From Marsupella aquatica (lineage: Eukaryota > Plantae > Marchantiophyta): a DNA stretch of 64,000 bases. The stretch is from NCBI GenBank assembly GCA_973895155.1, contig OZ316899.1:5273241-5337240 (forward strand), read 5' to 3'. The translations under genes were made by a program, and so were the position numbers. Below are positions 6,125-62,824 of this stretch, one piece after another; the first letter of the stretch is position 1; each line of letters begins with the position of its first letter. The notes under the pieces were generated by a model, which ran no database searches, had not been told where the DNA came from, and saw nothing but the letters and a program-made list of their open reading frames with translations.

Positions 6125-8627
6125 TTACAGTTTCTTAGCACCAGCACGACCTCTTCCTCGTCCTCTGGTTCCTGATACTGATTTAAGATTTGACTTTATA
6201 TTAACATCTACTCCCGATCCTTGACTGATGGTAGTTTCCCTCAATTTCTTCCTAACTGCAAAGGACTCTGTGCTCTTCTCTGTTCGCTGTCTCTTACTCC
6301 CCTTTGTAGGAGTCGTACTATCAGGATGAGAACCAGTTGACAAATTCTGCACAACTAAACCAAGTTCTGGGGTAGATTCAACATTGCCCTTCTCGACCTT
6401 CAGAATTGCCAGGTCCTCCTCACCCATCACCTTCCGGGCTGCATTGTGAAACTCATTGCCAGTCTTAGCGGTTACTTCAAGTGGGTTCTCTATGGCAACT
6501 CTAAGCAGACCATGATCTACATGCGCAGCTCTTCCAACAGTTTCATGGTACAGTGTTGATTTCTTCACACTTTCCTGCAACACAATACATGCCAGATTTA
6601 GTTTTGAGCAGCTATGAAGCCATCTACCCACTAATACTTACAAACTTCTTAGCCAAATCACAAACTCACAACAAAACAAACTGACCAGGTTTGGTGCTAT
6701 ACCTGTGAATAAAACTTTGTCACTTTCTTGTGCTTGGCTGCTTGATTCTTCCTCCTAGATTCAATATTGAAGCCATGGTTGCTATACAAATCAATTAGGT
6801 CCTTCTCGAAAGAGGTGGACTGTTCTTGCAAACCCCACTCATCCGCTAACTTCACTACCTCTGCATGGTCCATTTGAGGTGAACCCCAACACTCAAGCCA
6901 TCCTGGATGAAACACTTCAGAACAAGCTTCGCACTTAGGGGCTCTACTCTCATCCCTTTGGAGCAAGGGAAACAAACAACTTGGATGGTAACAATGGCCA
7001 CAAGGTGTTGGAACCCAATTATTACAAAAGAAGCCAAGAGAGCAAACTGGGCATTCTGTGATGAGGAAACAATTTTCTTCCGACTGTAGGGGACACAGAA
7101 CAGTAACAGGGCTTACATAAACTGCGCCTTTACTCATGTGATGTTTAAGTCTAGAGCACTCTGCATTTACCGCATCATACGATTTGGTAAGCTTGTCTGC
7201 AGTATCTGACAAGGTTTGCGCATTGCTAACTCCAAAGTACTCTTCATCATCCAACCTACTCAACTCCATCATCTTTGATTGGATCTGAGGGAGTAAAAGT
7301 TCATGCTACACCTCTTGCAACGATAAGGAATCTTGCAAATGATTTGTTTCATTGCAACACGCTAAAAATCTGGCTCGATAATCCTCATAGATTGCCTACA
7401 AAAGTCCCAACCCAACTGGTTCAGATGTTATGTACAATAATTACTTATGAAGAACACAGAATGAAACACGATACAAAAACAAGATTCAAGACATTGAAGC
7501 CAGTACTTCAAAACACATAAGGAATTTGATTGAAGTATAGTTACCTGATCAGAACCTCCTTCTGGGTCATCGTCATCAGGATCTTCCAGCTTAGCTTGGA
7601 GCAAGGCAATATCATCAGAAAGTTGGTTCTTCTCTGCCACCTTTGCCTCCATAGCACTATGTATCTTATCCATTTCCGCCAAGTACTTAGCCTTACGAGT
7701 TTGTAATTCACGCAACACCACTCCAAGATCTTTGAGCTCAAGGTAAACAGTATCCATCCGTGCTTTTCACGTGGCTGCAACATTTTGAGCCTTCTCTGCC
7801 TTTGGGCCAAGCTCTCAAAGACAGCGCTCCACAACCCCTAGCCGGGATTCCAAAACTACATGCTTTCCTAAAACAAGTGTGCCAGTAGTGACACCATGAC
7901 ATTGTACCTTTGGCAGCTCTTCAAACGTGACCTCTTGCGAGGTAGAATCTTTGCCTCCTGAAAAGTCCTGATCTGGTTGCTTGGATTGGGATGCACCGTG
8001 CTTGCTCAGTTGCTCAATATTTACTTGCACAGGATCCGATGCTAAGGCTGGAGGTGCCTGAATGCTTGATATCGCACCATGCAAATGTTTCACATCATTG
8101 TTACCTCCTACATCCGGGGGTACATCCGACTCCTTTGTTTCGCAGTCCTTCAATGGATTGTGAAGGACCCTAAGGCAATCTTCTTGAACTCCACTCCTTT
8201 TTGTTGACCCACACTTTGATAACTTGCTTACACCATTCAAACTTAAGCCTGGAGGCGGGGTATACATGTGCTCAATCCGCCTCCATGGTGGCGAATCAAG
8301 CTGCGGAGGAGTTTTGCGCACAAACCTCAGTCTTAGTTGCCCTCTATGCTTGTCCACACCACAAGCTGCCCAGTTCACTGCCTTCTTCAAGATGCGCTCA
8401 TAGTATAGTCCCCTGGCAACCTCCAAAGTGTACTGCTGGAATTTCTCGATCCCATCTAATGCACAAATCAGATTGTGGATGTCCTCTGCAGGAATCCCCA
8501 CAATCCCTTCCTTCTTATAACCATTCTTCTTGTCCTTCACTCCAAAATGCGCCTCCAACGCTGCAGCTGGCACATCTTTGGCAGTGAGGTCTTTTGGGAT
8601 CTTCCCCTCATTAGGCAAGCCAATCAC
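6125..8627 (-). pseudogene. Spliced accessory gene: transposon-associated helical (PMD/Transposase_32-like) N-terminus, coiled coil, RING finger, basic RGRGRGR tail
   Basis: Segments ~8627-7815, ~7800-7545, 7395-6703 and 6574-6125. GT-AG phase-0 introns at 7544-7396 and 6702-6575. RING: CPVC..PCGHCYHPSC..CEAC. One in-frame TAG near 7306, plus a frame break near 7815. Confidence 0.7.
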
Positions 8628-8914
8628 ATGGTGGAAGTAGTCAAGGTCCTTTGCACAGTCGTCAATGGTCCACCCTCATTCAGGATGCTTCTCAGGAGAA
8701 ATGGCCAACTCGGACGGACCAGGTTTGTCACGACACTGTGAGTCCCCGAGCGGTGGTATAGTCATCTGGCTAAGCGGCTGCTCCGGTCTGCCAGGATCAA
8801 TGAAACTAATGACAACTAACGAGCATCAGAGAGAAATGTATGCTTTCCACCTCTTGCCCCGGTTCAAATGTTGCCTAATGCAACTAGCAACTGCGGGATG
8901 ATTGTATAAACATG

Positions 8915-12165: not shown

Positions 12166-15100
12166 GTAGTCTTAACATATGTTAACCATCAACCTTTGGA
12201 ACATAGCTGGCGCATTACACAATCCGAAAGGCATCCGGTTAAACACATAAATTCCCCACTCCGTAATAAAAGCGGTTTTGATCTGATCCTCTTGCCTGAT
12301 TCTGATTTGATTATATCCAGAGTAGCCATCCATGAAAGAATACAACTCATGGCTAGCTACAGTGTCTAGCACCATATCAGTAAAAGGCAACGGAAAATGA
12401 TCCTTCAAAGTGGCATCATTTAACTTCCTGTAATCTTGGCAAACCTTATCTTTGGCTTCCCATCAGGTCCTGCCTTCTTGGGTACAATGACAATAGGAGA
12501 CACCCAGTCCGAATGGAGAACTGGCGTAATGAAGCCGGCCTCCACCAACTTGTCAATTTCTGCCTTTACCAACAATGAGTACTTTGGGTTCATCCTCCTC
12601 ATTGGTTGCCAAAATGATTTGGCTCCCAACATAAGATCAATCCGATGCTCTCCCAACTTTGGGTCCACTCCTTGTAAATCAAGGTGACTCCAAGCAAAAA
12701 CATCTTGGTTTTCCACAAGTAACTCACTGATCTCCTTTTCGATTTTAGGAGCAAGATCCCTACCTAGATTTACTTCCCGACCCTCACCCAACTTGAGCTT
12801 CCTGTATTGCTTTGATCGAATCATGTTGATTTGCTTCTTTAGAGTTGGATCTAGGTCTGCCTCCAACCTGGCCAACCTCATTCCTCCATATACTGGAATT
12901 TTGGGCTCCATGGTTGTTTCTATCACCTCCGTTGTTGTCTCCCCACATGAAGAAGTAGCTTCTTCAATGATGGTGTTGATCTCTATTGGAGTAGATCCGT
13001 TCGACTTTAGCTTCCCTTTTAGCCTTAGCATTTTATCCTTTAGCTTCATCCTCTACCTCCCATGACATGGTAATAGGTGGAGTTCCGAATGTAAACTGTT
13101 TTGTGCCCCAGTTTTCCACAACTTTTGCAAGGTACAACCAGGGTCGTCCTATCAACACCCTAAATGAGGTAGGGTTCACCGGCTTCATCACAATGTAATT
13201 AATGCTGAATGCAATACCACCAATCTCCGTGCGTATTCCTTGAAGAATACCTGTGGGAACTACCTGGTAGCCGTTAGCCATATTCAATACTCTACCAGTC
13301 AATTTTGGTTTGAATCCCCAAGCCGCCGCTATTGAATCAATGAGTATGCATACCCTAGACCCTCCATCGATTGGTACATGCATAACCTTTTCTTTATTGA
13401 TGATGACTGGTAAGCAAGGGGCTCCCCTATCCTCCTGAATCATCATGACATTCGTACAAGTGGCTACTCTAGGAAGCCTCGGCTTCCCGGCAATGGCTTT
13501 TTTCAATTGCTTCCAAAAATACGGGCTATTTTTTAATAATTGACCCACAGTAGCCGTGACGCGTGATTCCAACACATCCTTTGCCAAGTTGTATGGCACC
13601 AGCTGTTTCCCTGTGTCATCCTCCTGGGGTAATTTACTCGCTCTAAGAGGATTCTCCTGAGTTGGTAATGATTCTGGTTCCTTTGGTTCTAGAGGTGTGC
13701 TTGGTGAAGTCAGTGGTGACACACTTCTGTCCTCCACTATTTCCATTGAAGCGGAAACAATTTCCTCCTTCATTTGCTTGACAGCTCTCTTAATATCCTT
13801 CTGGAGTGCAACCTCATTCTTGTCCTTTTCCAGCTCTACCAACTGCTCCTTCACACTAGCCGTGACTGCCGGAAAAAATAAACTGGGATGCGTTCGATCA
13901 AAATCACTATCCTGGGAAGGACTGGGATCACCAGGTACGACTTGCGGGTCCTCAATGACAAGGGCTTTGCCGCTAGAACCAGAAGACGTGGAATCAAACG
14001 CATCTTCCTTCCACGGCTTCTTTTTCTTGGTAATCCCCTCCCACCTTTGCTTCCTTCTGGTGGATCTAGTGGACACACGGTAACAATCAGCATCAACTTC
14101 TTCTTTGGAATAAGTGGATAGGGCGTCTGCTTCATCATCAGAAGGTGAAAATTCCCCTCGTGCTTCTTCACGCCATCCTAAGTCAATATGATTTACCTGG
14201 GCTCCTCCTGGCATAGTTCCTGCTGGCAGTACCTTTGGTGCGGGTTTGACAGGTACATCAGCCATCCCGGCTAACCAAATAGGGCATTGGGTAAGTATAT
14301 GCTGTTCTCCTTTGCAACCCATACAAAGCTTGACTGGCTGACCATCCGCCTGCTTCCTTGCATTGGTGCACTCCCGGGAGAAGTGACATGGTTGACCACA
14401 GTTATAGCATGCTGCAAATCTCTGAACATTTGGTTGTGGAGGTGTAGTTGGATTTTGAATGATGCGTGGATACATCTCCCCTGCATTGGTTCTCAATGCT
14501 CCCCACAAAGAGGTGGGTCGGTTAGCCAAATCTCGGGCTCCAGCCTCACTGATGCCAAACACACTATCCACGGCATCTCCAAGTATCTACTCCACCTCCA
14601 ACTCTCCTATCGTTCCCTCGGTTATCAATCGAACATTCTTTGTACCACGCTTTGGACAGACATCCTTGTGATGTCCGGTGGTATAACAGTGAGCGCACCA
14701 TACTGAGGTGTCATCGGCTGCCTCCCTCTTCTTCGGCTGGGAGTTGGCTAATAACGTTTTTAACTGCTTTGTGATCGCTGTCAATTGATCCGGAGATGCT
14801 TTCTTAGGATCCAACTTGGTTTTCACCTTTTTTGCAACCTTCTCTTTCTTCTTGATTTTCTTTTTTTACTCTTTTCATCATCCTCTGGACTGGAAGATGT
14901 TTCACTCTTACTGGTATCACTCTCAGAGCTACAACTCTCCTCCTTGGCTTTCTTGGATCGCTTCTTCTTGGCCTTTTTCTTGCCTGATTCCTCTTCTGAA
15001 GATGAATTGTCAAACTTGTAGTGTTTTTTTCGGCTCGTGATATCAGCATTGATGTATAGTTGAATATCATGAATCACCTCTGCCAAAGACTCCGGATTCC

Positions 15101-15522
15101 CCTTCCGAATTGCAAAACTCATCTTCTGTAGTAGGGCATTAACCAACCACTGCAATTGCATTTCGTCTGATGCATTGGTCTTGGTTTGTCGCACCAATTT
15201 GTGGAATCGCTGCAAAAATTTCCAAAAAGACTTGTTCTCCTTGAATTGAAGCCGTCCTAGCTTCAACATTGCCAATTCAGACGTCCCAATGGGACGGAAT
15301 TCCTTGACAAACAGCTGCTTGAAGGTGACCCATTCATTCTGTTCCCCTGGTTTCAAATTGGAGTACCATGGTTGAGCCTCACCTTTAAACAACCCGGGTA
15401 AGATCTGCATCTTGATAGCAAACTCTCCATTAGCAGTTGTAGTCCCATCAAACTCCTCAAGCCAGTCATCCGGGTCCTCCTCATGCTTACCATGAAATGC
15501 CTTGTAATGGATTTGTGATCTC

Positions 15523-18460
15523 TGTCAGACCCTTGCTTATGAGCTAATAAGCTTTATTGTACTAAAAGCTTGCACTTGATAGCTCTTTATCACCAGGAAC
15601 TATGGGAAATCTAGGTCTCCCTTTCCCAAAGAGAAGACTTCTGGACTCACAACAATCATATGAGCAACATGCTAGACCACAAGGGCCTCAAGATTTCAGA
15701 TGAGTGCACATCAACAATTTCTTTCCCAGAAACGCGCTGAAATTTCATAAGAATTTCAAAGGAAGTACATGGGTAGGTTGTCACTACCTACTTGCTATAC
15801 TTTAGCTTCTTCAACTCCTACTACTTAACACTATGGTCCTTTCAAGCCTCAAGGCATACACTTGAGTTCTAGTACCCCTAGAACATCTACCTTAGTTCCC
15901 CTAAGGTCTCTTAGTGCTACTCCTTGATTCTCCATACTTGGACCCACACAAAGTAACTCACACCAACTTAAGTACTCCTTGCTTGGCTCCAACTCATCAC
16001 AAAGTCCAAAACCACCCCAAAGGCCAGCAAGTGACTCATCACTAAAAAAGACCAGCCCACCTTTCAAGGGGGTCAAAGATCCTTACTTATCCTCCTAACT
16101 ATCTCACTAACTCATTTGTTTGTCTTACCTAACTAATGAGCTAGTTGGTGGCCTTTTGAAAGCCTAAATCAACTCCTTGATTTTAGCCCTTCATTCAGGT
16201 CCACCTCACCTCCTGACTTGGCTGTCCTATCCCTCCAAATCAGGGACTAAGTCAGCCTCCAAAGTACAGTCATCCCTATCTACCAAATAGCTCTAAAAAT
16301 AGTAGAGGGATCAACTTCCAATGGCCCTCCAAGTTCCTCCAAGGTCTCCATGTAATTCAGGTCCTTAGGTACCGGCCCTCCATGTTGGCTTTAAGGACTC
16401 CACTCCTTACCCTCCTTATTCCTGGACTCCAGAACCAGCCTAGGTCCCCTTGACATGAAAGAGCCCTTCTCCAGGCCTCACCCATCCGATTAGGGCCTTG
16501 CGAATGACCCAAGCATGGTACCTCCTTACTGTACTGGTTAGTGGCTTGGTAATCTGGTTGTCCTCTCTGAAATGCTTGAGGTACACCTTGGTGAAAGCCC
16601 TCAGATTTGAACTTCTGCCCCTCTTGTCCACCTTTGAGCAAGCTAGGTATTGGAACCCCGTGAGACTACAAACGTAAAGGCCCAGTACTCCTGTGAAATA
16701 TAAGCCCTGGTCTTGACAGTAAGTGCATGGGTGAACGGAGAGAAAGAACTCATGGAAATAGGAGAATGAATGCTTCCCATCTATGGTAGAGTCAACTGCC
16801 TGATTCAGTTTGGAGCAAGGAGAGAACTAAGCTAGGACTTAGAGAACTGAACTTGTTTGAAGGGATCGTGGCTTATTTGAAGGAAGTCTGGCTGGTGCTT
16901 CTGTTCATACCAGCCCTCCATTCTCACAAAAATATCTCCCTTCCATGTGTTCTTCTCTCGATTGTCGGTTGACCTTGGTAGCATTCAATTTGTGAGTCCA
17001 AAGAGCAGCCATTCTAATTTCAGAAATATCTCTATGGACTTGATACTAATCCTGCATTCAATTCTTGAGTCCAAAGAGTAGCCATTCTAATTTCAGAAAT
17101 ATCTCTATGGACTTGATCCTGCATTCAATTCTTGAATCCAAAGAGCAACCATTCTAATTTCAGAAATATCTCTATGGACTTGATCCTGCATTCAATTCCT
17201 GAAGTTAAGGGCCACAGCTCAGATTTCTTGTCAATCACCCTAGCTGAGGAAATGGTCTTCTAGCTGTCCACTGTTGCCACCTCGAAGTTCCCCTATAGAA
17301 GGTGCAAGTTGATTTCGCCTGAAGAGCCCCCTTGTTAGCAGTCGATGACTTCTCCTTTCTGTAAAATATTCTCTCTGATTCAGAAATTTCAATCTTCTCT
17401 GTTAATTTCCCTTCCAGCCTTTGCTTTCCCTTCGATCTCCTCCTTTAATTCGTGCTCCAGAATTTCCTCTTCTAGTTCAGGTCTTCTGATTCTCCTTGAG
17501 CCCAACATTCCAGCCCAGTTCTTCTTACTTGATTTGGTGGAGTATTGGCTTTCCATTCAGCTGCAGCGTTGAGCTCCATTCTCCCTTCAATTTCACTTTG
17601 ATTTTTGCTCTATTGAATTCTGGGCTCGACACCTGGCCTTAGCTAGCTCTTTTACATTGTAACCCTGCCCTTTAGAGATGTAAATGAGTCCACCACGTTT
17701 CTCTACGCAGTTGAATTACCCCTTTGTATGCACAAAGAACATTCCTCCCTTTAAGTCTCCCTTGAAGTGCTACTTATGGCATTTAACATTAGCCATCTTC
17801 GCCTATAGCTCAAAACTCACTCATTTAAAAAACAATATTATGAACATACTCCTGGCTTTCCTAGCCCTAGGGCTAACTAAAACAATTCTTAGAATTGATA
17901 TATAACTAAAGTTGACTTTTCTATAATTGTTCAAAGTCTGCAATCCGTCATAATTCATAGCTACTTTTACAGAATTCGGACCAATCCCAAAAAGTATCTA
18001 TAAGTCCAAAACTAGGTTTAGTAATTCTAAGGGATAGTGTTAGGTATAGTAACACCATGGCTAGCCTTCAAAATACATTTTTTGCTCTATGGCTATTTTC
18101 CCTAGGTCCTGCAAGTTGGCTATTTTAAGTTTTGTTCCACTGTAAATAGCTTCTAATTGAACGGTCGAAATGACTTGCACTTTTACAAGGGTTCTCCAGG
18201 GCCTGCCTAGAACCTTCAGAAAAAATCCCAGCCTAAATTACAAACTCTAAGGATCTGATTACCTATCTAATCCACTAATCCACTGTTAAGTTAACCGTGG
18301 TTTAAACTAATTAAACTTTCTTACTCTGCTTTACTGAAGAGAGTTTACTTCAGTTTCACTTCTACTTCCCACTCATTTACAGGCATAATATGCTTACTTA
18401 GAACAAAAAAGAAAAAATCTAACCTAAAACTAATTTAACCCACTAATTGAGCGGCTCACA
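15523..18460. mobile_element. Solo LTR (2938 bp) inserted in gag
   Basis: TGTCAGAC...GGCTCACA ends, flanked by ATCTC / ATCGC (5-bp TSD with one mismatch). The gag frame is restored on removal. Confidence 0.85.
16981..17199. repeat. ~67-bp tandem repeat (3+ copies) inside the solo LTR
   Basis: GCATTCAATTCTTGAGTCCAAAGAG..CAGAAATATCTCTATGGACTTGAT units begin at 16981, 17054, 17121 and 17188. Confidence 0.9.
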
Positions 18461-18794: not shown

Positions 18795-21700
18795 TGTGGC
18801 GCGTTTTCCAAGACCTCTAACCCCAAGAACTACCCTCAACTGATCATAAACCACTCGTTTATGTCCGTCCTCTTGCCGTATGGCAGCAATTTGGCTTGGA
18901 AACGCGATCCTCTCCTTCGATCCACACTTACCGGACCGGTTCTTTCATTGGGCTTGTGAATTGTGCACAACTGAGACACCTAATTCCTCTTTAACTTCTT
19001 CAGGTATATTTGTATTCCGCCCCCGGAATGTACCTCTACGGCTTAATTTCTTAAGCCGGCTGAAGGTCTTTTTCAGACGAACTCAACCCACACTTCACCG
19101 ACTAAACACTCTCAATCCTCACTTTTCTCTCAGAGTTTGATTGGGCAGTCTCCAATCAAGACAATGCAATTGTACTTTTCTCAACAGTTCACCCTATCTG
19201 ACTTAAATCGATCAAGCAACAGATATCACAACACTCAACTTCTTGGATGGCAAGAATCTGCAAACAGTGCAACGAGGCCAACTCAATTCAAACAGTTGCT
19301 CAGAAATCCAAGGGAACTGGTAGTTTACTGATATCCTGCGGTCTAGATTTAGCCGAGAGCTTCCTGTGCTCACAACAATACAGATTTTACACTAAAGCCT
19401 TGACTAAGAAAACAACCCCTCCCAACCACGCTGCCCGGGTTTTTATCCTTGCAGCGTGACTGAAAGAAGTGCGGAAAGCCTACCCCTACAATCCCGCCTT
19501 GCCACCGCGATAATCCTCTTTATTGAACAAAAAACAAAACTAATCTGCCTAAGCCGAAAACCCGATGGATCCGGACCTCTAACACAATCAAACTATTCAA
19601 GCCGATAGAGCGCTACTTGCCCTGTCCACATCCTACAACGGTCGCGCCCTCCTGGCCCAAGCCCTTCTCCTTCCGCCACGTCCTCCTTCCAACTGACGAC
19701 TGGCCCACCTTAATTGTTAGATGACCGATGGTAATCCTGAGCCGTCCGACTCTGCACCTTCCCCTGTACTCGGCTTTGGCTGACTACCCTCGACCACATT
19801 AACTACGGCTTTGGGTTCGGCCTTGGCTTCATTCTCCTTGGCAACGGTCTGGAGAGCTTTTGCCTTAACTTCCTCAATCCAAGCCTGCTCCCCGATGCGC
19901 TCCGTCTTGATAACCCACGGCTTCATGTTCTGGGCGTCCATAGAAGCAGTACCATCGTCTGAACCTGTCACTGCAACTCCAAGTTGATCCGCAGTACTTA
20001 CCTCTACCACAGCTGCCTTCAAGGCCACAGTACCGCAAATGTGAGCAACCATGCTCTCGACTTCCTCCGGAGTGGCTTTAAGGGGTTTAACTTTATTATC
20101 GCCCGGCCCCATGAACGTCTTTGCCAAATCTGCCACTAACTGCATGGCTTTGCCCCCAGTCAGGCTTGACAATAGTGAGCTCGGCTTTGGCATCACTGTA
20201 TTTCCGCCTACCATACTACTGACGGGCAGCCTTTCAGTTGGTGACCCATATCCCGCTTTGGCATACTTCTTCATTTTCTCCGTTTGATTGTCAGCACGTC
20301 TCTGCAACCCGATCATCTTATCCTTGGCCTCCTCCAACTCCTGAGATACGTCTTCAACTTCATTGTTAAGCTGTAATATCTCAGCCTTGGCCGCCTTCAG
20401 CTCCTCATTTAAGATCTGCACGATCTCCAACTCTTGCTTATTTGCGACTGCCTTCAAGGAGTTATTGATGGTTTCCAGCTTCATGACCTCTTCCTTCCAT
20501 GCCTTCTTTGTCTTCTCTATATCCCCCTGAAGCTCCTTGCGTATTTGCTGGGCTCGGCTTAGGTGATCATTGGCCATTGTACTCAGGGCATCCTCATGTT
20601 TCTCCTGCATGGCATCCAGCCGATCAAGTAGCTTTTCATGCTTCCCTTGGGTTGCGGCCAAGGCCTTCTCGCTCTAAGTGGTCTGGTCTTTAGCCGCCTT
20701 CCTAAGCCTATCGACTTGTTGATTAAGACCCTGTACCTTCTCCCTCACATCAGCTAACTCCAGCTGCACCTTTGTCAATTTCTCTTTAATCTGCTGGTTA
20801 TCCCATTGGTAGTTTTCCAATTGGTTGTTCGCCATCTCTAATTCCTGCTGCTTAGCCAAGAGATCCTGTTGTGCTTGTTGATTCACCCTTGATTTAGCCA
20901 CCTCTGTTTGCATGCCGCAAAGCCGAGCGATCACTTCCTCCTTCTTCAATCACTCTAATGTCATTGCCTCCTCCAGTCTCGTCTGATCAGCCACTTCTTT
21001 TCTAAGAAATGGCCCGGATTCCAAGTCGTTGCCGAAGATTTCTAAGGCTAAGAGTCCACACAAGTCTCCATACTCCTTAGCTAGATTTCTTGCGTAGTTT
21101 GACCTCCCAGGTGATACTGGCATCTGCCATCGGGGTTGTCTCTCCCAAGCCTCTTCCCTCAGCTGATCAAAGTCAGTGAGAGGTTTGGCCTGCTTCTCAC
21201 TAAGCCGTCTTATTTCTTCTGGCCACTCTCCTCCTGGTAGCTGGCATTCCTATTCTGCATTCCGAGCCCCCCACTCCTTAATCCTCTCTTGTAGCCCGAC
21301 TTCAGCTTCCTTCATCTTGTCAAATTCTAATGACGTCACATCTGGTGGAGGAGATTCTAGTGTTTTCTGGTCCTCCGGCTTGCCATAGAAGATTGCGGGA
21401 AATCTTCTACAAAACCTTCCCATCGTTCTAACTCCTGGCACCGGCCTCTCCCCGTGATTGACATAATCATCATCGTAGTCATCCACATTAACCTGACTAC
21501 CTAGCATGCCGGCCTCTTCTCCAAAGCCCCCGATCTCTTCCTCCGAATATTGTTGGGCTGCTACTGGTTGATTTTCCTCCACATGTCCCTCCACTTGGGC
21601 TCTGTTAGAAGCTCTTAATACCGCCCTCTCCTAGCTTTGGCTTACCTCCTCATCTGTCTTCGAATCCATTCGCTCGTCATATTTCTTTCTCTCTTCGGCA

Positions 21701-22760
21701 GTCATCTTCCTCTCGACCAATTGGATGCCTGCATATGGATTATTACGAGTAGGCCGGTGCAACGGATTTCTCACCACATCATATGTTACTACCTCTGGCA
21801 ACACTGGTGCAAAAGACTGGCTTCTTGCATATCGGCAAAGTAATTGCAGATGGTACCCTAGTCTGGATACCGCTCCTTCCCCAATGCTCTGCTTCTCTCA
21901 TTTAATGCTTTCTTCAACTGCATTAAGAGATAGCTATTGTAGTCTCGGCTTGCATCGATATTCTCCACCAAAAACACCTGGGCTTTGCCGATTTCTGCTC
22001 TCGGCAAGGTACAATGCAATGTGACTCTCAGGAAATCAATCAGCTGCCCTATATGCGGGTTGGTACATTGATTCCTGAAAAACCCATTCTTAGTGGAAGG
22101 CCCTAGAAATGACCTAAACTGGTCATCCGGCAACGTCTTCCTCTGCTCCACCCAAGTCTTCCTTCCTGTTGGTAAAGCAAAGACGGCTTTGATAAGCGCA
22201 GGTGTTAGTTCGAACACCTTTCCATACAGCAACGTTGTGTTGGGAGAAGCCTCCCAGCATCCCACGAAGTCCAACAGATCCTCATCTGGTATGTCTACCA
22301 TCCTCCAGGACAACCTAACAAAGCCCTCCAACCCAGTGTTCATTCATATATCCTGCATATTTATTATCCTGAACGGCACTGAAGACCTCATCCTCATCTC
22401 TGGCGAACTGTAATTGTAAATCGGCAGGTAACCTGTTCGCCCACCCTGTCATGGTTTTATCCTCTACAGCCCGATCTCTAACTGGCCCGGCTTCTGTCTT
22501 GATTGGTCTCTCTGACCTAGTTCACTTTGTCGGAGTTGCGGATGCCCAACTTCCCTTGCGCTTCATCTCTTCAGCGCTTGAATACTCCCCAATAATAGCT
22601 TCCTTTGTCCACTTTGCAGTGTGACCCTTCAATTCCCAAAGTGGCTGCCCTACGTTCTTGATTTCCTCCCTAATCCCCACAACCTTATTCTCCCAAATCA
22701 GCAATTTGTCAAGCTCCGCACTGGTGGGTGTCCACAAGAACCCGCCGAAAACCAGCCGGA
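18795..22760 (-). mobile_element. 5' LTR of the gypsy element (>=3.9 kb; its 5' end is not seen), containing a gene
   Basis: CA end at 18795 next to the PBS. Homologous to 22765-25265, which ends at the same ...CCACA. Confidence 0.7.
19717..22737 (-). pseudogene. LTR-embedded gene: PMD/Transposase_32-like domain plus long coiled coil, with several stops
   Basis: ORF pieces 22737-22522, 22343-21858 (GLEGFVRLSW..LIKAVFALPTG..KNGF), 21594-21250, 20949-20674 and 20661-19717 (heptad-rich). Confidence 0.75.
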
Positions 22761-22764
22761 ACGA

Positions 22765-24375
22765 GTGATCCAGTTGCTGTGGCGGTTAATTGACATACCA
22801 AACAAAGATCTATTAGACTTTGTAGGATGCTGGGAGGCTTCTTCTAACACGACGCTGATGTATGGGAAGGTGGTGGAATTAATGCCAGCACTAATTGAAG
22901 CCGTCTTTGCTCTTCCACAAGGGAATAAAACTAAGGTGAAGCAACAAAAGACATTGTCGGATAACCAATTCCGATCATTTCCAGGGCCCTCTACTAAGAA
23001 TGGGTTCTTTAGAAATCAATGCACTAATCCACATGTGGGGCAGTTGATTGATTTCTTAAGAGTCACGCTACACTGTACATTGCCGAGAGCAGAGATTGGC
23101 AAGGCCAGGTATTTTTGGTGGAGAATATCGATTCAAGCCGAGACTACAACGGCTATCTCTTAATGCAGTTGAAGAAAGCATTAAATGAAGAGAAGCAGAG
23201 CATTGGGGAAGGAGCGGTATCCAGACTAGGGTACCATGTGCAATTACTTTGCCGAACAACCAATTGGAAAATTGGACAACCAGCAGCTCAAGGAAAAATT
23301 GACGAAGGTACAGCTGGAGTTAGCCAATTCAAAGGAAGAAGTACAGGGTCTAAATCGGCAAGTCGAGAGGCTCAGAAAGACGGCTAAGGACCAGGCCACC
23401 CAGAGCGAGAAGGCCTTGGCTGAAGCCCAAAGGAAGTATGACAAGCTACTCGACCGGTTGGAGGCCATGCGGGAGAAGCATGAGGACACAATTTGTACAA
23501 CAGCCAATGATCACCTAAGCCGAGTCCAACAGATACGTAAGGAGCTTCAGGAGGAGATAACCAAGACAAAGCAGGCATGGACGGATGAGGTCACGAAGCT
23601 GGAAACCATCAACAATTCCCAGAGAGCCGCTCTGGATAAGAAGGAGTTTGAGATCGTACAGATCTTAAACGAGGAACTAAAGACGGCCAAGGATGAGGCG
23701 CATCGGCTTAACAAGGAAGTTGAGGACTTATCTCAGGAGCTGGAGGAGGCCAAGGACAAGATGATCGGGTTGCAGAGGCGGGCAGATATTCAAACGGAGA
23801 AATTACAAAAGTATGCCAAAGCAAGACGTGGATCACCGACTGGACGGTCTCCTGCTAGTGGCGTGGTAGCCGAGAATACTGACATGCCAAAACCGACATC
23901 AATATTGTCAAGGGTAACTGAGGGTAAGGCAATGCAGTTGGTTGTGGATCTGGCCAAGACATTCATTGGGCCAGCAGGTACTTATGGGGTGCCTCTCAAG
24001 GCCACTCCAAAAGAGGTCAAAAGTATGGTTGCTCACATTTGTGGGACTATTTCTACAAAGACAGTCGTAGTTGAGATAAGTAATGCCGATGAACTTGGAG
24101 CTGCAGTAACAGGTTCAGACACAGGTACTGCTACCATGGACTACCGGAATGTGAAGCGGTGGAAGATTGAGACAGAACGTATCGGAGAGCAGGCTTGGAT
24201 GGAGGAAGTGAAGGCCAACGCTATCCAAGCCGTTTCCCAGGAGGATGCTGCCAATGCCAAGGCCGAGGCTGTTAAACCAGGACCCGAAGCCGGGGAAGCC
24301 GAAGGGATCAAGCCGGAGCCAATTGCAGGAGGAGGTGCAGAGTTGGAAGATTCGGACTTACCGCCGGTCATCTGA
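22765..24375 (+). pseudogene. Paralog of the LTR-embedded gene (5'-truncated, frameshifted, middle deleted)
   Basis: DIPNKDLLDFVGCWEAS..KNGFFRNQCTNPH joined to a 379-aa coiled-coil ORF ending DLPPVI (GLPSVI in the left copy). Confidence 0.8.
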
Positions 24376-25265
24376 CAATTAAGGAGGGCCAGTCGTCGGT
24401 TGGAAGGAGGATGTGGCGGTAGGAGAAGGGCTTGGGTCAGAAGGGCACGACCGTTGGAGGATGGGACAGGGCAAGTAGCGCCTTGTCGGCTTAGGTAGTA
24501 TTAGGTGTTCGGTTCCTGCAGGGTTTTGGGTTAGTCAAGTTGTGTTTAGTGATTGTTAATTAGCAGGTTTATTGCGGTGGAAGGCCGTGATTTGTGGTTT
24601 TGATTTCCGCCAATTCCCTTGGATGCGCTGCAAGGATAAAAACCTGGGCAGCGTGGCTTGAGGGGCTTTTCTCTAGTCAAGACTCTAGTGTAAATCAGTA
24701 TTACTAGCATAGGAAGCTCTCGGCTACATCTAGACCGCGGATTATCAGTAAACCACAAGTTCCCATGGATTTTTGTGCAATTGTTTGAATTGAGTTGGCC
24801 TTGTTGCCTAGTTTGCAGATTCTTGCCAATCATGGTGTTGTGTGTTATGATATTTGTTGCTTGATCGATTTGAGTCAGTTAGAGTGATACTGTGAGCTAA
24901 TACGATTGCATTGTCTTGATTGAAGACTGCCAAACCAATCTCTAAGAGAAAGGTGAGGATTGAGAGTGTTTTGTTGGTTAAAGTGTGGGTTGAGTCAGTC
25001 TGAGAAAAACCTTCATCCAGCTTAAGAGATTAAGCCGTAGGGGTATATTCTGGGGCGGGATACAAACATACCCGACGAAGTCAATTAAGGAATTAGGCGT
25101 CTCAGCAATACACAATTCACAAGCCCAGTGAAAGAATCGGTCCAGCATAGTGTGGATTGAAGAAGTAGACCGCGTTTCCAAGCCGAATAGTAGCCAAACC
25201 ACCATAAGCCGACCATAAGTAGTGGTTCATAGTCGGTTGCGGATGGTGTTGGGAAATGCACCACA
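22765..25265 (+). mobile_element. Second, inverted and internally deleted copy of the gene-bearing LTR
   Basis: Reverse-complement homology to 18795-22330. Ends GGGAAATGCACCACA versus GGAAAACGCGCCACA in the left copy. No PBS follows. Confidence 0.8.
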
Positions 25266-25565
25266 ATACCTTCTAGCCACGATAACAAAATTTAGTCCCC
25301 TCTGATGTCTGCTTTGCAACTCACCAAGTAGTTTCCACCAAGCAGCAACCAGCTAGTAACGAGCAATAATCCTCCACCACAATTAAGTAGCTCGCAATCC
25401 GCCAATGCCCAGCACTCAACGATCCCCCAATGCACATAAATCCACGATCCCCAATGCACAGCAATGACCAATCCCCCAATGCGCAGCAATCAGCAACCCG
25501 TCAAGCAGCAATCCTCTATCAATTGGCAAATTCGCAATGCGCAAACCCCCATTACCATATACGCT

Positions 25566-48408: not shown

Positions 48409-49951
48409 TTGCAGGAAGCGATCATACAACAAAAAATACTTTTAAGAGAAGGAAAGCGAGTCAAATCACAGGAAGGAAACGATGAAGAAGAATCAAATGG
48501 TATGGATGAGAAACTATTAACGAGTAACAAGGAGAAACAGAAGGTGGAGGAATTGGAACCAGAGGCTGAGATAGACGACTTGATCGAAGGAGAAAATGTA
48601 GATGCGGAGATTGTGGCAGTCAGCAAAGACACACCACCCAACGTCAAAACAACGATTTCCAAGAAGTTAGGGTTGAGGCAAGCCAAAACGATTAAGGGTA
48701 AAGTGTGGAGTCAAGTAATCAAATCAGAGGAAGAGGAAACTGAAGAGGAATCTATAGAGGAAGAAGAGGAGTTGGTTGCAAAGTGTGGAAACAAAAAGCA
48801 AGTAAAGAAAGATCGCAACACGGGGAAGCATGTACTCAAGTTCAAAGGGATGGAACCACACATACTGGAGAACATGAGGAGCAATAGTCATAAACAGTTC
48901 TTGAGGAATCAAGGACTCGAAGAGTTTGTATATTTGGAATGGGCAACGACCACCGATCTGGAATCAAAAGAACGCTGCGAGAACTATTCAAGTTGCCAAC
49001 CAGAGGAGCCGAAATCAAGAAAAGGATCAGGAAAACATGGCAGCCGGCTTCGTTTCCCCAACACAAAGAAGTAGATGATACCAGAGGCTACCAGATGCGA
49101 CAGTGCACCGATGATAAGATCAAGGAAAGATTAGAGTTTGTGACTCATGCTTTACACTGGAAGCGCCCAAGGTCGGATCCACGGTTCATGATAAAGATCG
49201 TGGAGGAGGGCGATGGTAAATAGAAGAATTGGGTGTCATTTTTCCATGAGGGCTTTCATTCAACACTTAAACGAGCGAAGAAACTTATCGTGCAACCAGA
49301 AGCTATCTACCAGCAAAAATCGAGTCACATTTTCAGGTTCTAATCGGGGAGCAGTTAAAGAGGACGACCACACGAGTACAAAGGAGTAAACCTCAGCTAA
49401 TGATGGAGAAACCAGGCACAACTGATGATCAAAAGTGCAAGAGTGCAGCTACAGAAGAGGAAACAACCAAGGGAGGAGGAGGATCCCAAATGAAGCAGCC
49501 TGGGAACGGGAAGAAGCGAATCATTGAAGCAGCCAAACATAAATCAACGGAGGAAAACCAAGGGGAGAAGGAAGAAACCTGGGATAAATTCTTCAGTGAT
49601 AGAAACCGGAGAGTAAAAAGTGCAAACTTGGACATAAGCAGTTCTGAGGCCATAGATGATACCGACATTAGATACGCCATAGAAACTTGCTCCACGCCTG
49701 AGGTACAGACGGTACAAAGTGTAATTGGGATTGAGAAGCTGAGAGAAGAGATCAAAAACATTAGAAGAAGCAGCATCTTCACCACCATGACAGGACAGAT
49801 CATTTGGCAGGTAGCAATCTACCAAGGGATGAGCAACGCACTGGACCAACATTTCTGGAACGATAGAGAACAGGAATTCATTGCAGCAAATGCAAAAGCA
49901 GAAGAGCTAGAGAAGAAAACATCAGAGAATCAGCAGATTATGGAGAAGCTG
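48409..49951 (+). pseudogene. K/E-rich region plus PMD/Transposase_32-like domain and coiled coil; fragment, probably from another gypsy-associated cassette
   Basis: FLRNQGLEEFVYLEW..ELFKLPTRG..RGYQMRQC..RLEFVTHALHW. Cut on the right by the AGT-LTR at 49952. Confidence 0.65.
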
Positions 49952-51213: not shown

Positions 51214-53070
51214 ATGCTAGATCAACCAGAGTTTAGTGCGTCACGCATTCGGAGATACAAGGCTGCTTACCGTGACTACGTGGAGACTCGGATTACACGG
51301 GAAAGGGAAGAGAGAGAAGTTATGATGAGCACGGGATTGGCAGCGGGTTCCTCACCGGTGGGTAGGAAGATTTTTCGTCGAATTTATCCCAAGACCTCCA
51401 CCAAGGTGATGGAGGATTGTCGGAACATTTTCCAAGCCACCGGGCTTACAGAATTCATGAAGGTGGAGATTACCATCCCTTCAGGGAAGAGCTGGGACAT
51501 TGAGGCCGGGATGGAGTTCCGAACGGAGGGAATCTACTTTGAATGTCTCAAACGTGTAGTGCCCCATGTGGAGTTGGCTAAGCTATTGTTTCTTGAGAAT
51601 CAGAAATTCTCATTCACACCTCGGAATATCAGGGGAGAACTCACGTTGAAAATGGTGGCCACTTGGGTGACCAATCCTACCTCCACCACCGCCATCCCTC
51701 TTTCTGCTGTCAAGGATGTTGAGTATAAGGGCTTCCTGGCCAAGGTGCATCAACGGGTTCTTGGCAACGTGCAATCCGGAGTGCTGAATGAGGAGCATTT
51801 CGTGGTAGCTATGGACATCAAGAACTACCCAGCCCATGTGTACGGATGGTGGTGCTACGGATTGAAGAAGCTATTGGCCGCTGAGCCCGGGAGTGTGAAA
51901 CCAGGTGGGGCTGTACATTTGATGGGGTCATTTGTATTGGCCAGGGCAGAAGGGTTGATTGGTTCTCCGGGGCATGAAGACACGGGATCATCTCTCACCA
52001 CGGAGATCCGGAGTATTGCCACTACCGTTTTAGGGAAGCTCACGGAGGAATCATTGTCTGCTGGTGGGGAGGATAATAGAGAAGAAGAGAACCAGGAGGA
52101 TGATTGCACATTGGAGTGGCTTGAATCACTCGTGGGAGATCCGAAACAGCCTCTGGAATACAACATTCCGGATGTTTACTTGGCAGAGCTACGGGATTTC
52201 AGAGAGGGAGTCCACGAGGGACTCAAGCTAGTCCACGCATTGAGGGAGTCTCTCAAGCACGCCACAGTCAAAGTAGAGACGTTAGAGCAGAGCATCCTGT
52301 CACTGAAGGAGGTGATCAAGACCAAGGAGCAGACCATTCATGAGAAGGTCAGGCACATCAATGCAGCTCACGTAGAGATCACCAACTTGAAGGGAGCTTT
52401 GTCCACCAAGGCCAAGGAAGCAGAAGAAGTAGGAGCGTTGAGGCAAGCATTGGCCAAAGAGAAGCAAAATTCTGGAGAAGTGATGGAGTGGAGGAACCAG
52501 GTGGGAGCACTACGGAGTCAGGTGGCAGCCTTTGAGACACGAGCGAAGAGAAGTGAGGCCCTGAGTCTAGGGAAACGGAAGAGTCCCGGCACACCTGGCT
52601 CCACACTTTCCCCGGATGTGATCTCCCAAGCTATCGAGATGGTGGTGAAGGAGGTTAGTGGGAAGTATGGACCCTTGTTGGATGGAGCCAAGAAGAGTCA
52701 GGAGAAGAGTAAGAGCTTGGAGAAGAAGCTCCGGGAGGTACGGAAATCGTTACGGGAGGCTCAGGTCAGTACGGGGATGCCACCCAGGTCTGTCACCCCC
52801 GGGACTCCCATGGCCACGGGGCAAGTTCTACCGTTGGAGTTGCGGTCCGGAGAAGAGGCTACCCTCTGGAAGGACACAATTGGTGAGGGGTACATCAAGG
52901 CGTGGCAGGCCTTGGCTGCTTTGAGGAAGCGCGGGAGCAGCAGCACTAAGAGTACTCCGTCGAAGAAGAAGAAAAGTACGGTGGCACTCACTCCCGTGAG
53001 TGATGAGGAGGAGGACCACTCACGGGGCACAAGTCCGGGCACCGAGAGCGAAGAAGAAGAGGAGGATTAG
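51214..53070 (+). CDS. 618-aa LTR-encoded protein: helical transposon-associated N-terminal domain, coiled coil, basic NLS-like and acidic tail
   Basis: Uninterrupted ORF. IFQATGLTEFMKV..ELAKLLFLEN; heptad-rich region ~aa 335-515; PSKKKK; ESEEEED. Confidence 0.85.
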   Translation: MLDQPEFSASRIRRYKAAYRDYVETRITREREEREVMMSTGLAAGSSPVGRKIFRRIYPKTSTKVMEDCRNIFQATGLTEFMKVEITIPSGKSWDIEAGMEFRTEGIYFECLKRVVPHVELAKLLFLENQKFSFTPRNIRGELTLKMVATWVTNPTSTTAIPLSAVKDVEYKGFLAKVHQRVLGNVQSGVLNEEHFVVAMDIKNYPAHVYGWWCYGLKKLLAAEPGSVKPGGAVHLMGSFVLARAEGLIGSPGHEDTGSSLTTEIRSIATTVLGKLTEESLSAGGEDNREEENQEDDCTLEWLESLVGDPKQPLEYNIPDVYLAELRDFREGVHEGLKLVHALRESLKHATVKVETLEQSILSLKEVIKTKEQTIHEKVRHINAAHVEITNLKGALSTKAKEAEEVGALRQALAKEKQNSGEVMEWRNQVGALRSQVAAFETRAKRSEALSLGKRKSPGTPGSTLSPDVISQAIEMVVKEVSGKYGPLLDGAKKSQEKSKSLEKKLREVRKSLREAQVSTGMPPRSVTPGTPMATGQVLPLELRSGEEATLWKDTIGEGYIKAWQALAALRKRGSSSTKSTPSKKKKSTVALTPVSDEEEDHSRGTSPGTESEEEEED

Positions 53071-54989
53071 ATAGGCGTACGGACGTGGGTGTACGGCCTC
53101 CAGATTTCCAACATTTTAGTGGGGGGTCACTCATGGGCTTGTTGGGATGAGCTCGCGGAGCTGATTCCAACAAGAGGCGGCGCTCCTCAAACGGAGCCAG
53201 GATGAGCAAGTTATGGCCTGGAGAACTTATGTTTTTGCGGTACGGAAACGGCCATAACTCAGGCGTCTGAAGTCCGTTGAGGGAGCGACTTAGTGATTCG
53301 GAAGCAGGAAAAGAAGAGCTATCCAGGGGTGAGCTCAGGTGTGCACTTGGAAGGGCACCTAGTTTCGGCCATTTTGGGGTGCCTCTCACTTTCAGGGTTC
53401 ACGTGTACTGTTGGGGCGCCGTCGAAGGCACCGTCGGCCCCCTTGTTTTGGGTTTAGGGTTTTAGCAGCATGTGTGTGCCGCATGCTCCTCTTCAGTTTA
53501 AGGATTTCTCTTAGTGCAAGGTTTTAGCGGCGCCGCTAGGGTAGCCGCCACCGTTGTGACCCTGTGAGGGGTGCTTTGGTGTGATTTTTCAGTATTTAGG
53601 GGGATAGCCCCGAAGTAGTTAGGGGGACTCAGTGTGAAGTTAGCAAGGAGGGATAGAGTGGAGCCTGAGGAGTTTGAAAGCGTGTTCAGAGTAGTGAGGG
53701 GGAGCCATACTCATTGTCCGGAGAGGCAGGAGTTGAGTAGACGGCAGGAGGCCGGGTTACTCATGCAATGTGTATCGTTTTTCCCAAGAGATATGGATCT
53801 GTACATTTGACTTGATGGGCTTTTGTTGTGTGTTCCTTCTCCCTTTTTCGCTTTCCGAATTGTGTTCTCCCGTTCTATGATTTGAAGAAACTTGCTTGGT
53901 TTGAGTCGGCCTTGTGAGTAGGGGTGGTGACAGCACTCTTTGGGTGACTCCGAGTGAAGGTGTAGTGGGGTAGTCGGCAGGACTTGATCAAAAGCTGTGG
54001 GGTGAGGGTAGTCGGTAGACTTGATCAAAACCTACATTTCCGGGAGCGGAAACCAAAATACTCATCCTGGTGTGAAAAGAATCCAAATAGCGTCCCTCCA
54101 CGACCCCGTAATACGATACCAACGGTTTAAGCGAAGAAAAGTGCGGTTTGCACGTATTAACCGTTGGAGAGGCAAGTGACACTTGCTCTCTAACACGACC
54201 GCTACTCAACGGTCCTCCCTATTTGCACAAGCAACCAAACACCTCGGTAAGTAACCCTTCAGGATCTAGAACTCGCCAAGTCTAGCATCCTAACTCAAGC
54301 TCAACAGACGTTGGTAACACAACTACATTTTACGGCTGATTAACGGACTTTTAGAAGACGTTAATCATGATGTATATGGCCAGCGGAGGAAAGACCTCAT
54401 TCACAACGTTAATTACCACGTTTGGGGAGACGCTCTTTACCACGTCCAGAACATTAATCTTAACGTCGTACAATAGGAGGTATATGGTTTTACAACGTGT
54501 CAGACTACGTAAAATATACCCAGCGCTCGTGTTTAAGTTTACCCATAAACGTCGTGTCAGGCTACGTAATGAAACATTAACCACGTCTAGTACGTCGTAA
54601 TGTGCAATGCACTAAACGTCATTGTATTTTAGCGTCGTCCGTGGCCGGTAAATTACGACCTTTTTTGAGACGTATGGGTAAGTTGACATAGTAGGGGACG
54701 ATGTATCGTGCTCTTGTTGTGCGACGTACGTTGGCTTATGTAGGGCTCAACGATGTACTATGGTGGTTAAAGGTCTTATAAAGGAGAACGTATATAGGAG
54801 TACATACGTCCTATTACACATTGCACTGTCTGGGTGGGGTCCTTGTTAGGGTTCAGCTCACACACAATATAACCATGTGTTTTTACATATTGTAACTCGG
54901 AATGAGGTGCCACCACAAATGGGTGGCCTGAATCAAAATGGCAAAAAATATGTACATAATGCATGGAGGACCTCCAGCTACTGAAATAC

Positions 54990-60450: not shown

Positions 60451-62824
60451 CTAATGCCTGGCACGCTTGCCAGAGCCGCTCGAATGGGAGCGGCCATCCC
60501 GCTGCCTTCGAAGCCTGTCATTGTCCGCCTTGAGGAGCTGGACCTGGTCTAGCAGAGATTCGTTCTCTCGCCTTGTCGCGTCCGTCTCCTCTGCTGCCTC
60601 CTGACATGCCTCCTCTAGCTGCTGGGCGTCGCTCGTCAGTTTACCCGCCAGCTGGTCCTGCTTCTCGGCCTCGGTTTGGGGCCATGCCACCTCGGCCTGC
60701 AGCGTGGCTATCTCCGCCGTGTCCCGCTGGGCTCGTTCCTCGGCCTCCTCCAGGTCTTTCTGCCAGGTGACGGTTTGATTCTTCAAACTGTCAATCTGGT
60801 TCCGGAGTCGTGTAATCTCGGCCTCGTTCCCAGCTTTGGCCTGTTTGGCTAGGGCGGTAAGAGCGTGCGCCTTGCTAACAACTCATCGGCGGCTGCAACC
60901 TTGGGTCGTAGTTGCAGAAGCTCAGCCTCTTGAGCCGCAACTTCATTCTTTAGGTACACTGACTCCACCCGGTACCGCTCTATCCTCTGAAGGGCCTCTG
61001 ACTGGGCCCGACCTGCCTTTACTACGGCAACCAACTCCTGATTGAAGAAACAGGCTACCTTCCGGGCCATGAACTCCCTGGTATCCCGGGCAATTTGATG
61101 AGAGAAATCTCCCAGAAGCCCGTTCAGAAATGTACCCGGTACGAAGAGTTCCGGGTGGTCCAGGTTGTGCCTGTCCGGAGTTGGGCACGGGCAGACGTCA
61201 ACACGCGCGGGGGCCGGGGCAGTGACGTCCATCCCTGGGGACGTAACGTTGGAAGGGGCTGGAGTGTCCTCCTGCAGCAATGTCCGGTTCTCCGGAATAG
61301 CCACCGGTGGGTCTTTGGGAGACCCGGGCTCGGGTAAGACCTCCGTCGTACCGACTTCTGTACTTAGCCCGGCTTGTTGGGTCGCATCAACGGTTGCGAC
61401 AACCGACCCATCCGATACCTCCTCGGTTACGACTACAGCTACTTGTGGAGGTGGGGTGGGTGAAGCTGGCGTGTCCGCTGGACTTCGGGCCTCGGGTTGG
61501 GGCCGTCTCTCCAAGGCCGGGAAAACCCACCTAGCTGGGACCAGCTTTGTAACGTTGACACGGGGAAGGGGATGAGGCAGGTCTTCATCACGAACCCGTT
61601 GTCCACTGCTCCCTCTGAGGGAAAACTTGAAGATTGGTACTTGGCTCCCTTGCCCCCGGGAGCCCGTGATTCGACTCGATGGTCACCTTCGGGTAACCCG
61701 AAGATCATCTTGAGCCGAGTATGTTGACGCGCGTCGTCATAATTCCTGACGAACTCCGTCATGTCCTCCCCGTAGTACCTGCAAGTGTTCCAGGGGAGGG
61801 AGGCGAGGTGCTCGAATCCCTGAGTCTTCAGATACACCGCATGCTTGGGATGGAGGACGTTTTTGTGAACGTTTTCCCCCATGCGGTGCATCGTCACCTT
61901 GGCTACGGCTACCGTGGCCAACGGTAACCCGGATGCAGTGGTGGATTCCTTCCTCTTCTTCCCCCGTGACTGGCTCAGGGTAGGTGACACTTCCCCATCC
62001 TCCCGATCGGGCCTGGGTAGTGCCACTGCCGTTAGTAACGGGCCCGGGGTGGCCATGGTCACCATGTTGTCTGCCGGGGCCGCTCCTGGGGTCAGAGCAG
62101 GGGGTGGGGACGATATAGTGTCGGCCCCTTGAGCGCTTGTTCCTCTGGGCCGCCTGGTCAAGGGTGGGGTAGCCTCGTCGTCATCGCTAAGATCCACAAC
62201 GTTGATGACGGAGCGTACTTGTGCTGGCTGGGCGATCGGTGGTGGGGTTTGGCTAGGCTGCGGCTGAGGCTGAAGCTGAAGCTGAGCCTAAGGTTGAGCC
62301 TGAGGTTGAGCCTGAGGTTGCATGGGTACGGGTACGGGTTCGACTGAGTTGGTCATGTTGGTTGATGGCCGAGTTCCCATGAAGCTCTGTAGGTGCTGGT
62401 AGAAGTTCTCCGAAGCGAGTGCAGACGACCTTGTCGAACGGGTAGTGTTGGACTCGCTGTTGATGATAGCCCGAACCTGAGCAGGGATGTGGTCGAAGTG
62501 ATGTCGTTGCAAGTCGATCGTACCCGGGATATTGAAGACCTCGTCCGGAAGCCGAAGCAATGCTTCCCAGAAACCGATATATTTGTCTCCGTTGAAGAAG
62601 TACCCAGATACCTCTGCTGGTCGGTAAAGCTTGCTCTGAGACGGGTAGTCAAAGTTAAGGATGTAGTGGTGTCGTCTTGCTAGGCGGAGGGCTCGCTCGT
62701 ACTCGCGTTCGATTTCGTATCGGCACGGGTTGGCGTGTTTCAATGAGTCGGCCAAGTGCCTTCCGGTAGATAGGAACTGCATCCAGAATCGAATGGCCGA
62801 GCTGGAGAGGATCGTGTGCGACAT
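60451..62824 (-). pseudogene. LTR-embedded gene (~790 codons originally): N-terminal domain, QP repeat, PMD/Transposase_32-like domain, Pro-rich linker, coiled coil, basic end
   Basis: Pieces 62824-62288, 62197-61439 (YLKTQGFEHLASLPW..EFVRNY..MIFGLPEG..DNGF), 61514-60849 and 60786-60451 (..GKRARH). Confidence 0.75.

Follow-up and report, generated by a model that had tools for sequence, protein, structure and literature searches.

The window analysed here, a stretch of 64,000 nucleotides (nt) from a contig of the liverwort Marsupella aquatica (OZ316899.1, positions 5,273,241 to 5,337,240), is a nest of broken plant transposons that contains gypsy-type gag and reverse transcriptase (RT), copia RT, and RT and endonuclease of long interspersed nuclear elements (LINEs). 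A first-pass annotation, made from the letters, had pointed to six segments of the window, in gypsy genes with long terminal repeats (LTRs) and in a DNA transposon, as carriers of one helical domain that is always followed by a coiled coil, and had likened this domain to PMD, the plant mobile domain, as well as to Transposase_32. The segments, designated s1 to s6, are given below with the open reading frames (ORFs) that concern them and, where available, their E-values in a hidden Markov model (HMM) search with a homolog-only profile.

7818..8672 (-): s1, a conserved domain of ~120 amino acids (aa), with 2 relatives at 67-74%
21861..22343 (-): s2, domain with a predicted VANC/PMD-like fold in a 3' extra ORF that is broken; E 1e-38; 33% identity to P0007, the homolog used for modelling
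22708..23258 (+): s3, frameshifted sister of s2 in inverted orientation; E 6e-28 and 1.6e-6; 84% DNA identity to s2
48832..49328 (+): s4, domain spread over three frames; E 3e-10, 3e-25 and 5.5e-4
51214..53070 (+): s5, intact ORF of ~620 aa, probable distant member plus coiled coil; glocal z 4.3-4.9; hhalign global P 0.0019
60451..62824 (-): s6 extra ORF, broken, with the domain itself at 61577-61909; E 2e-24

Sequence comparison indicates that four of these segments, s2, s3, s4 and s6, share a real domain of ~200 aa. A first-round profile built from the four and searched against 1.84 billion representatives gave 39 matches, four of which (P0001, P0006, P0019 and P0033) were repeat artefacts and were removed before all family counts, and the remaining 35 homologs are alignable over ~200 residues. 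When a profile of the 35 homologs only was run against the 1,559 ORFs of the window, it returned all four segments at the E-values listed, including some frames of s3 and s4 that it recovered although they lay outside the original query, such as the N-terminal frame of s4 (E 3e-10), and the best reversed-ORF control reached E 0.19. Four profiles made from separate subsets of the homologs each recovered s2, s3, s4 and s6 at E≤1.2e-5, and none of them ever matched s1 or s5 at E≤1. Within the window, tblastn linked s2 strongly to s3, to s4 with E 3e-4 and to s6 with E 0.19, and linked s1 and s5 to none of the four. The sequence pattern from which the proposal had started is borne out in part: blocks GLxxF..W, LPxG, NG/RG-F/Y and C are literally present in s2, s4 and s6, the E/D-F block is found in s2 and s6, and s3 has the pattern without its first block, whereas a regex scan of s5 found no pattern block and s1 contains only LPxxG, NGY and NWA. 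The idea of a single domain in all six segments fared similarly, in that it stands for s2, s3, s4 and s6 (best E 1e-38 to 2e-24) and is probable for s5 but is unproven for s1, which is taken up below.

The segments s2 and s3 belong to one family, as copies in inverted orientation with 77-84% DNA identity, and were therefore counted once. In a quick version of the family tree s2/s3, s4 and s6 are placed in different subgroups, so three independent lineages share the domain, which argues that the gene has been retained through long divergence. Species names were obtained for 11 homologs (27 of the 35 were looked up), and all 11 come from Calypogeia fissa, a liverwort. Basic residues are conserved at three columns of the alignment in 74-83% of the rows. 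A search by words for homologs of s2 in the longer proteins gave 0 of 446 candidates, while one with the family alignment returned only 3 matches, all known members, and thus provided no Pfam-labelled bridge to PMD. Metagenome contigs scanned with one subfamily and with the s1 family contained no relative and so offered no locus context outside the window. Among sequencing runs, no RNA holder was listed.

Segment s5 is probably a distant member of the same family, judging from its alignment to the profile and from the 3' hairpin motif behind it. Its HMMER score with the 35-homolog profile is not significant (E 7.8); its glocal score (z 4.3-4.9) was reached by 0 of 200 and 0 of 300 shuffles and ranked 4 among 44 long ORFs. 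This signal is confined to the first half of the domain, the second half having z 1.1, and hhalign aligned s5 to the family with a global P of 0.0019 and a probability of 5.8%. No gag-pol was seen adjoining s5.

The setting of these genes is described by the following features.

12172..15524 (-): remnant of gag, CCHC, protease-like region and RT downstream of the s2 LTR and primer-binding site (PBS) (Retrotrans_gag E 1e-11, zf-CCHC E 9e-4, RVT_1 E 5e-12)
18775-18790: PBS-like site beyond the putative s2 LTR, from sequence
18795..19107 (-): putative LTR 3' of s2 (purine tract, TG...CA), read from sequence, where homology to the s3 copy stops
19009-19028 (-): hairpin inside the putative s2 LTR, folding with z -3.0
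19717..20673 (-): C-terminal coiled coil belonging to the s2 ORF, with sub-threshold Pfam coiled-coil-type matches and heptad rank 2 of 115
23230..25266 (+): s3 coiled coil, 3' non-coding region and putative LTR (24967-25266)
54038..54057 (+): 3' hairpin motif located 968 nt past the stop of s5, in common with the elements of s2 and s6
63381..63998 (-): C-terminal part of an integrase, its end separated from the s6 ORF by 557 nt (rve_3 E 0.0096, under the cut-off)

The order of these features places the extra ORF in sense near the 3' end of Ty3/gypsy-type elements. At s6 an integrase-like ORF, 557 nt of spacing, the extra ORF, a hairpin and an LTR-like end follow one another on a single strand, which puts a sense ORF between integrase and 3' LTR, while s2 to s5 keep the 3' side only. 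The s6 ORF consists of an N-terminal domain (62288-62824), a low-complexity linker, the predicted VANC/PMD-fold-like domain and a coiled coil that runs to 60451; its N-terminal domain (~115 aa, minus strand, conserved and unnamed) recurs at E≤4e-4 in 4 of the 45 proteins compared (P0004, P0040, P0038 and P0029). Encoding by a MuDR element of the VANDAL kind was not found, since s6 lies behind an integrase-like ORF and s2 lies ahead of an LTR, PBS-like site, gag and RT. We infer that the gag/RT remnant at 12172..15524 is a tandem copy of the s2 family, and the RT of the gypsy elements in the window is presumably of non-chromovirus type. In both s2 and s3 a purine tract is followed by a TG...CA repeat of ~300 nt that holds the hairpin, and s3 is without ~1 kb that s2 has between domain and coiled coil (a deletion). 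At 18834-25242 the two lie head to head, as copies of a single gypsy 3' end that have diverged (77-84%). The s4 ORF is interrupted at ~49945 by a repeat with further copies at 11801 and 43296, and tandem arrays lie beside family elements at 16981-17203 and 50466-50790.

A hairpin with the sequence TTCCG-N4-CGGAA occurs in the putative LTRs of four elements, at 19009-19028 (-), ~25046-25065 (+), 54038-54057 (+) and 59718-59737 (-), placed 671-968 nt behind four of the extra ORFs, and three of the four elements have a second hairpin just upstream. A 20-nt pattern built from the s2 and s6 elements has 3 matches in the window (0.07 expected). The hairpin has no match in Rfam, and when the four hairpin windows were folded s2 alone did better than its shuffles (z -3.0).

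The coiled coil was judged by a crude heptad score, by which 115 ORFs were ranked. The ORFs behind s3, s2, s5 and s6 hold ranks 1-4, and s1 and s4 hold ranks 6 and 8. A coiled coil after the domain, said earlier to be invariable, is thus regular in the window, in all six segments, but is not established across the homolog family, where the score exceeds 1.3 in only 2 of 35 ORFs, many of which are fragments.

The fold was predicted from a homolog, P0007, folded with 37 sequences (predicted local distance difference test, pLDDT, 77; predicted template modelling score, pTM, 0.71). The model is mostly helical, as the first-pass annotation had supposed for the domain, and adds to this one predicted beta-hairpin. 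When it was compared by VIA-align with 48,161 solved chains, the best match was VANC21 in complex with DNA (9lnk_A), with Z 8.3 and an rmsd (root-mean-square deviation) of 4.7 over 211 residues (model range 22-249), and the next row had Z 3.5. The match was repeated on Foldseek's list. By Foldseek itself, among the 49 matches listed, VANC21 had a TM score of 0.38 and a probability of 0.33 and the others at most 0.15 and 0.04. The language-model (Atlas) neighbours of s2 include one cluster in which 68% of members carry DUF1985 (0.91) and one in which 20% carry PMD (0.90). A viral fold library gave no match at E≤0.001. This modelling predicts the VANC21/DUF1985/PMD fold for the core of the domain; the link to PMD is indirect and runs through VANC21 and the second of these Atlas clusters.

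Several results weigh against this interpretation. The Foldseek E-value for VANC21 is 1.7, the Z of 8.3 is near the best Z (7-8) that the tool gives for background and comes with an rmsd of 4.7 and 11% identity, and the modelled protein is a homolog and none from the window. Searches of PDB sequences with both alignments gave 0 matches at E≤10, and neither PMD (PF10536) nor DUF1985 (PF09331) was matched in 31 window ORFs (E≤1) or in the 39 search matches (E≤0.1). Direct linkage to pol is seen for s6 only, by way of a weak integrase match, four of the five family copies are broken, and a shared fold shows no function. Weight is nevertheless given to the Z of 8.3 because of its coverage, the gap to the next row and the fact that VANC21 was expected before the search. 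The earlier likening to PMD is supported at the level of fold for the gypsy copies but not as Pfam-level membership in PF10536, and Pfam-level membership in Transposase_32 is not supported either, the single match to PF20167 (1 of 35 homologs, E 0.059) scoring 13.7 bits against a cut-off of 45.

If the match to VANC were a chance arrangement of helices, the extra ORF could instead be an env-like gene, to which the sense position of s6 between pol and the 3' LTR, the coiled coil and the Foldseek E of 1.7 would all be suited. The maximum 19-residue hydropathy, however, is below 1.6 in 18 of 19 sequences and borderline in one (1.65), so the extra-ORF proteins have no clear membrane helix and an env role is unlikely, and the VANC21 match spans 211 residues at 4.8 Z above the next row. 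An env-like gene is therefore largely refuted already and is given very little credence.

With moderate confidence, s2, s3, s4, s6 and probably s5 are taken to be copies of a 3' extra gene of liverwort Ty3/gypsy-type elements, with a predicted VANC21/DUF1985/PMD fold, that likely encodes a DNA-binding regulator, dimerising by its coiled coil, that sustains transcription of its own element family. The analogy is to VANC21, which recognises a motif of 9 bases in the non-coding tandem repeats of its own element and causes methylation loss there (PMC5735166), which is predicted to dimerise via a coiled coil (PMC13547354), and whose DUF1985 domain is reported to be structurally like the PMD of the host proteins MAIN/MAIL1, termed PMD-C (PMC13547354; bioRxiv 2024.09.27.615353); for MAIL1 and MAIL2, association with motifs in promoters and an action opposed to Polycomb are described (bioRxiv 2024.09.27.615353). 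By this analogy the liverwort protein would dimerise through its coiled coil, would bind short motifs in the non-coding DNA of its own family as VANC and MAIL1 do, and would relieve silencing in trans, so keeping its family transcribed. Motif binding in element non-coding DNA combined with relief of silencing in trans is a tentative proposal, to which somewhat less than an even chance is assigned.

The main rival to this regulatory role keeps the same VANC/PMD fold and gives it a different task, for instance to anchor integration complexes on chromatin, to bind the LTR hairpin as RNA, or to serve as a structural scaffold. It would account for the conserved hairpin 671-968 nt behind four of the ORFs, it accords with the accessible text of PMC4408406 and PMC5418596, in which no function is demonstrated for any gypsy-encoded PMD, and it has a precedent in a related protein, the globular-plus-long-helix protein of ATLANTYS, which resembles the axis protein ASY2 (PMC13547354). 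The only solved relative, however, is a DNA-bound anti-silencing factor, and host PMD-C proteins, in the passages cited, also associate with DNA motifs. Another job is accordingly regarded as an appreciable but lesser possibility.

The remaining segment, s1, belongs to a DNA-transposon-like unit with the following features.

910..2811 (+): broken transposase-like gene, from its ORFs
3078-3469 and 9989-10163: arrays of 26 and 6 RGTATTR motifs
5575..5950 (no strand): 29 RGTATTR motifs arrayed where the s1/RING gene has its 3' end, TRF period 23
6697..7766 (-): two ORFs behind s1, one short and coiled-coil-like, the other RING-like (zf-RING_2 E 0.0045, under the cut-off)

The motif RGTATTR has 89 matches in the window (26.6 expected), 61 of them inside the three arrays. 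The s1 gene is bracketed by the arrays at 5575-5950 and 9989-10163 and the transposase-like gene ends in 26 copies, and these shared arrays tie the two genes to one DNA-transposon-like family. The exact target motif of VANC21, YAGTATTAY, occurs 6 times (1.3 expected) with 4 of the 6 inside the RGTATTR arrays, which may be a chance likeness of AT-rich transposase-binding repeats. The transposase-like gene, putatively Sola-like by its motifs only, has no Pfam match at E≤1, and no terminal inverted repeat (TIR) was found as an inverted match of at least 16 nt between candidate ends of the unit. Contigs of two organisms cover most of 5300-10150 (29-30 of 30 bins); no contig of these organisms bridges the transposase-like gene and the RING gene, and the element ends were not located by them. 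An adjoining ORF at 4895-5434 (-), covered by contigs of both organisms, resembles the C-terminal oligonucleotide/oligosaccharide-binding (OB) fold of RPA70 by eye only and has no such Pfam or PDB match.

On the strength of s1 all six segments could be regarded as one module, with s1 a copy that lost its N-terminal third and the module moved between gypsy elements and a DNA transposon within this lineage. In s1 and s2 the motifs LP..G, NG(F/Y) and NW follow one another in the same order at distances that agree (30 and 50 residues for s1, 28 and 48 for s2), hhalign aligns them in register to the domain's second half, the first third being absent, a coiled-coil-like ORF lies behind s1, and the arrays shared with the transposase-like gene hold the VANC21-type motifs just described. 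The alignment of s1 to the family, however, has a probability of 2% (P 0.025) and a score equalled by 10 of 389 column shuffles (P ~0.03) and nearly equalled by the reversed control (16.6 against 17.3), and the glocal z of s1 is 2.7 (5 of 300 shuffles) against 1.5 for its two relatives, both of which begin 35-42 columns ahead of the s1 start without a match to the first half of the domain. The 35-homolog profile does not find s1 among its matches at E≤10, and its Atlas neighbours are unnamed clusters of 84-119 aa from Mucoromycota (0.93), Ascomycota and cyanobacteria and not PMD or DUF1985. The s1 model has a pLDDT of 37 and is unusable; its fold search gave long-helix matches (best Z 4.6), and VANC21 is not among the best 50 matches of this low-confidence model. 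Segment s1 may represent a small mobile domain in its own right. Its being a truncated family member is regarded as an appreciable but lesser possibility, and so is a single module moved between the two kinds of element. Since the exchange between class I and class II elements claimed earlier rests on s1, the sole class II case, which is unproven, it is not shown in the window, although its premise, that PMD is common to gypsy and Mutator elements, had already been published for angiosperms (PMC5418596).

Elsewhere in the window are two inverted LINE copies (33972-38205 and 40963-47019). The ORF at 58163-59041 (+) contains a SET domain above the Pfam cut-off (E 3e-5) and is a possible transposon-borne histone methyltransferase; the ORFs around it, at 55818-59508, look CACTA-like by eye, and fragments at ~40350-40600 (-) read in translation, by eye, like a second SET-domain gene.

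The combination found here is not that of any one known system. VANC21 (DUF1985, PF09331; encoded by VANDAL MuDR elements of Arabidopsis; PDB 9lnk and 9lnj) is alike in predicted fold over 211 residues, in its coiled coil, in being the accessory gene of a mobile element and in having tandem arrays nearby, but the liverwort gene differs in its retrotransposon host, in its 11% identity and absence of a Pfam DUF1985 match, and in its occurrence in a liverwort, VANC being called dicot-specific (PMC13547354). PMD-A of Tat/Ogre gypsy elements (PF10536) is also an extra ORF of Ty3/gypsy elements, and a PMD with a coiled coil is reported in Tat lineages IV and V (PMC4408406); by way of VANC, PMD-A and host MAIN/MAIL1 would have the same fold as the liverwort domain. 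The liverwort ORFs are unlike PMD in having no Pfam match, in the additional N-terminal domain of s6, in their host, and in their 3' sense position, the reported PMD ORFs being 3' antisense (lineages III and V) or 5' sense (lineage IV) (PMC4408406). The 3' sense position is shared with Transposase_32 (PF20167) and Athila-type extra ORFs, and the first 67 residues of the one matching homolog align to the start of the Pfam model; the liverwort ORFs are distinguished from these by a score far below the Pfam cut-off and by the absence of a membrane helix.

In the accessible passages PMD is described as angiosperm-only (PMC8616336), extra ORFs are reported as absent from moss Tat-like elements and from lineages I and II, with the first one in gymnosperms (PMC4408406), and Phygy and Selgy are described as short elements with an interior filled by pol (PMC6317226); taken together these give a reported range of seed plants, to which the accessible parts of PMC7156037, PMC7264820, PMC11963269 and PMC12885004 add nothing further for PMD or extra ORFs. 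No literature was found on the plant mobile domain in bryophytes, or joining VANC, anti-silencing, retrotransposon and Marchantia, in searches outside which most subscription journals lay. While PMD in angiosperm gypsy and Mutator elements was already known, the sequences described here constitute a family of Pfam-unnamed 3' sense extra ORFs in liverwort gypsy elements, and what would be new is an element-borne variant of the VANC/PMD fold in liverworts that extends its known age.

Current views on the origin of MAIN/MAIL1 and VANC rest on seed-plant sequences. The direction of descent between the host genes and retrotransposons is described as entirely open (PMC5418596), and a recent proposal traces VANC to MAIN-like genes that were captured (PMC13547354). 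A bolder and rather improbable scenario is that an anti-silencing module with the VANC/PMD fold is as old as land plants, that it is carried in liverworts by gypsy elements (full domain and coiled coil) and by a non-Mutator DNA transposon (truncated domain, coiled coil and RING) whose arrays still resemble the VANC21 motif, and that VANC and MAIN/MAIL1 arose from a mobile motif-binding ancestor. If the predicted fold holds, a VANC-type protein would be much older than flowering plants, and the existence of a diverse liverwort family with this fold would date its element-borne form further back, in the direction of the land plants' common ancestor. The family also supplies intact ORFs for asking if gypsy elements bring along anti-silencing factors of their own, and does so in the liverworts, which include a tractable model plant.

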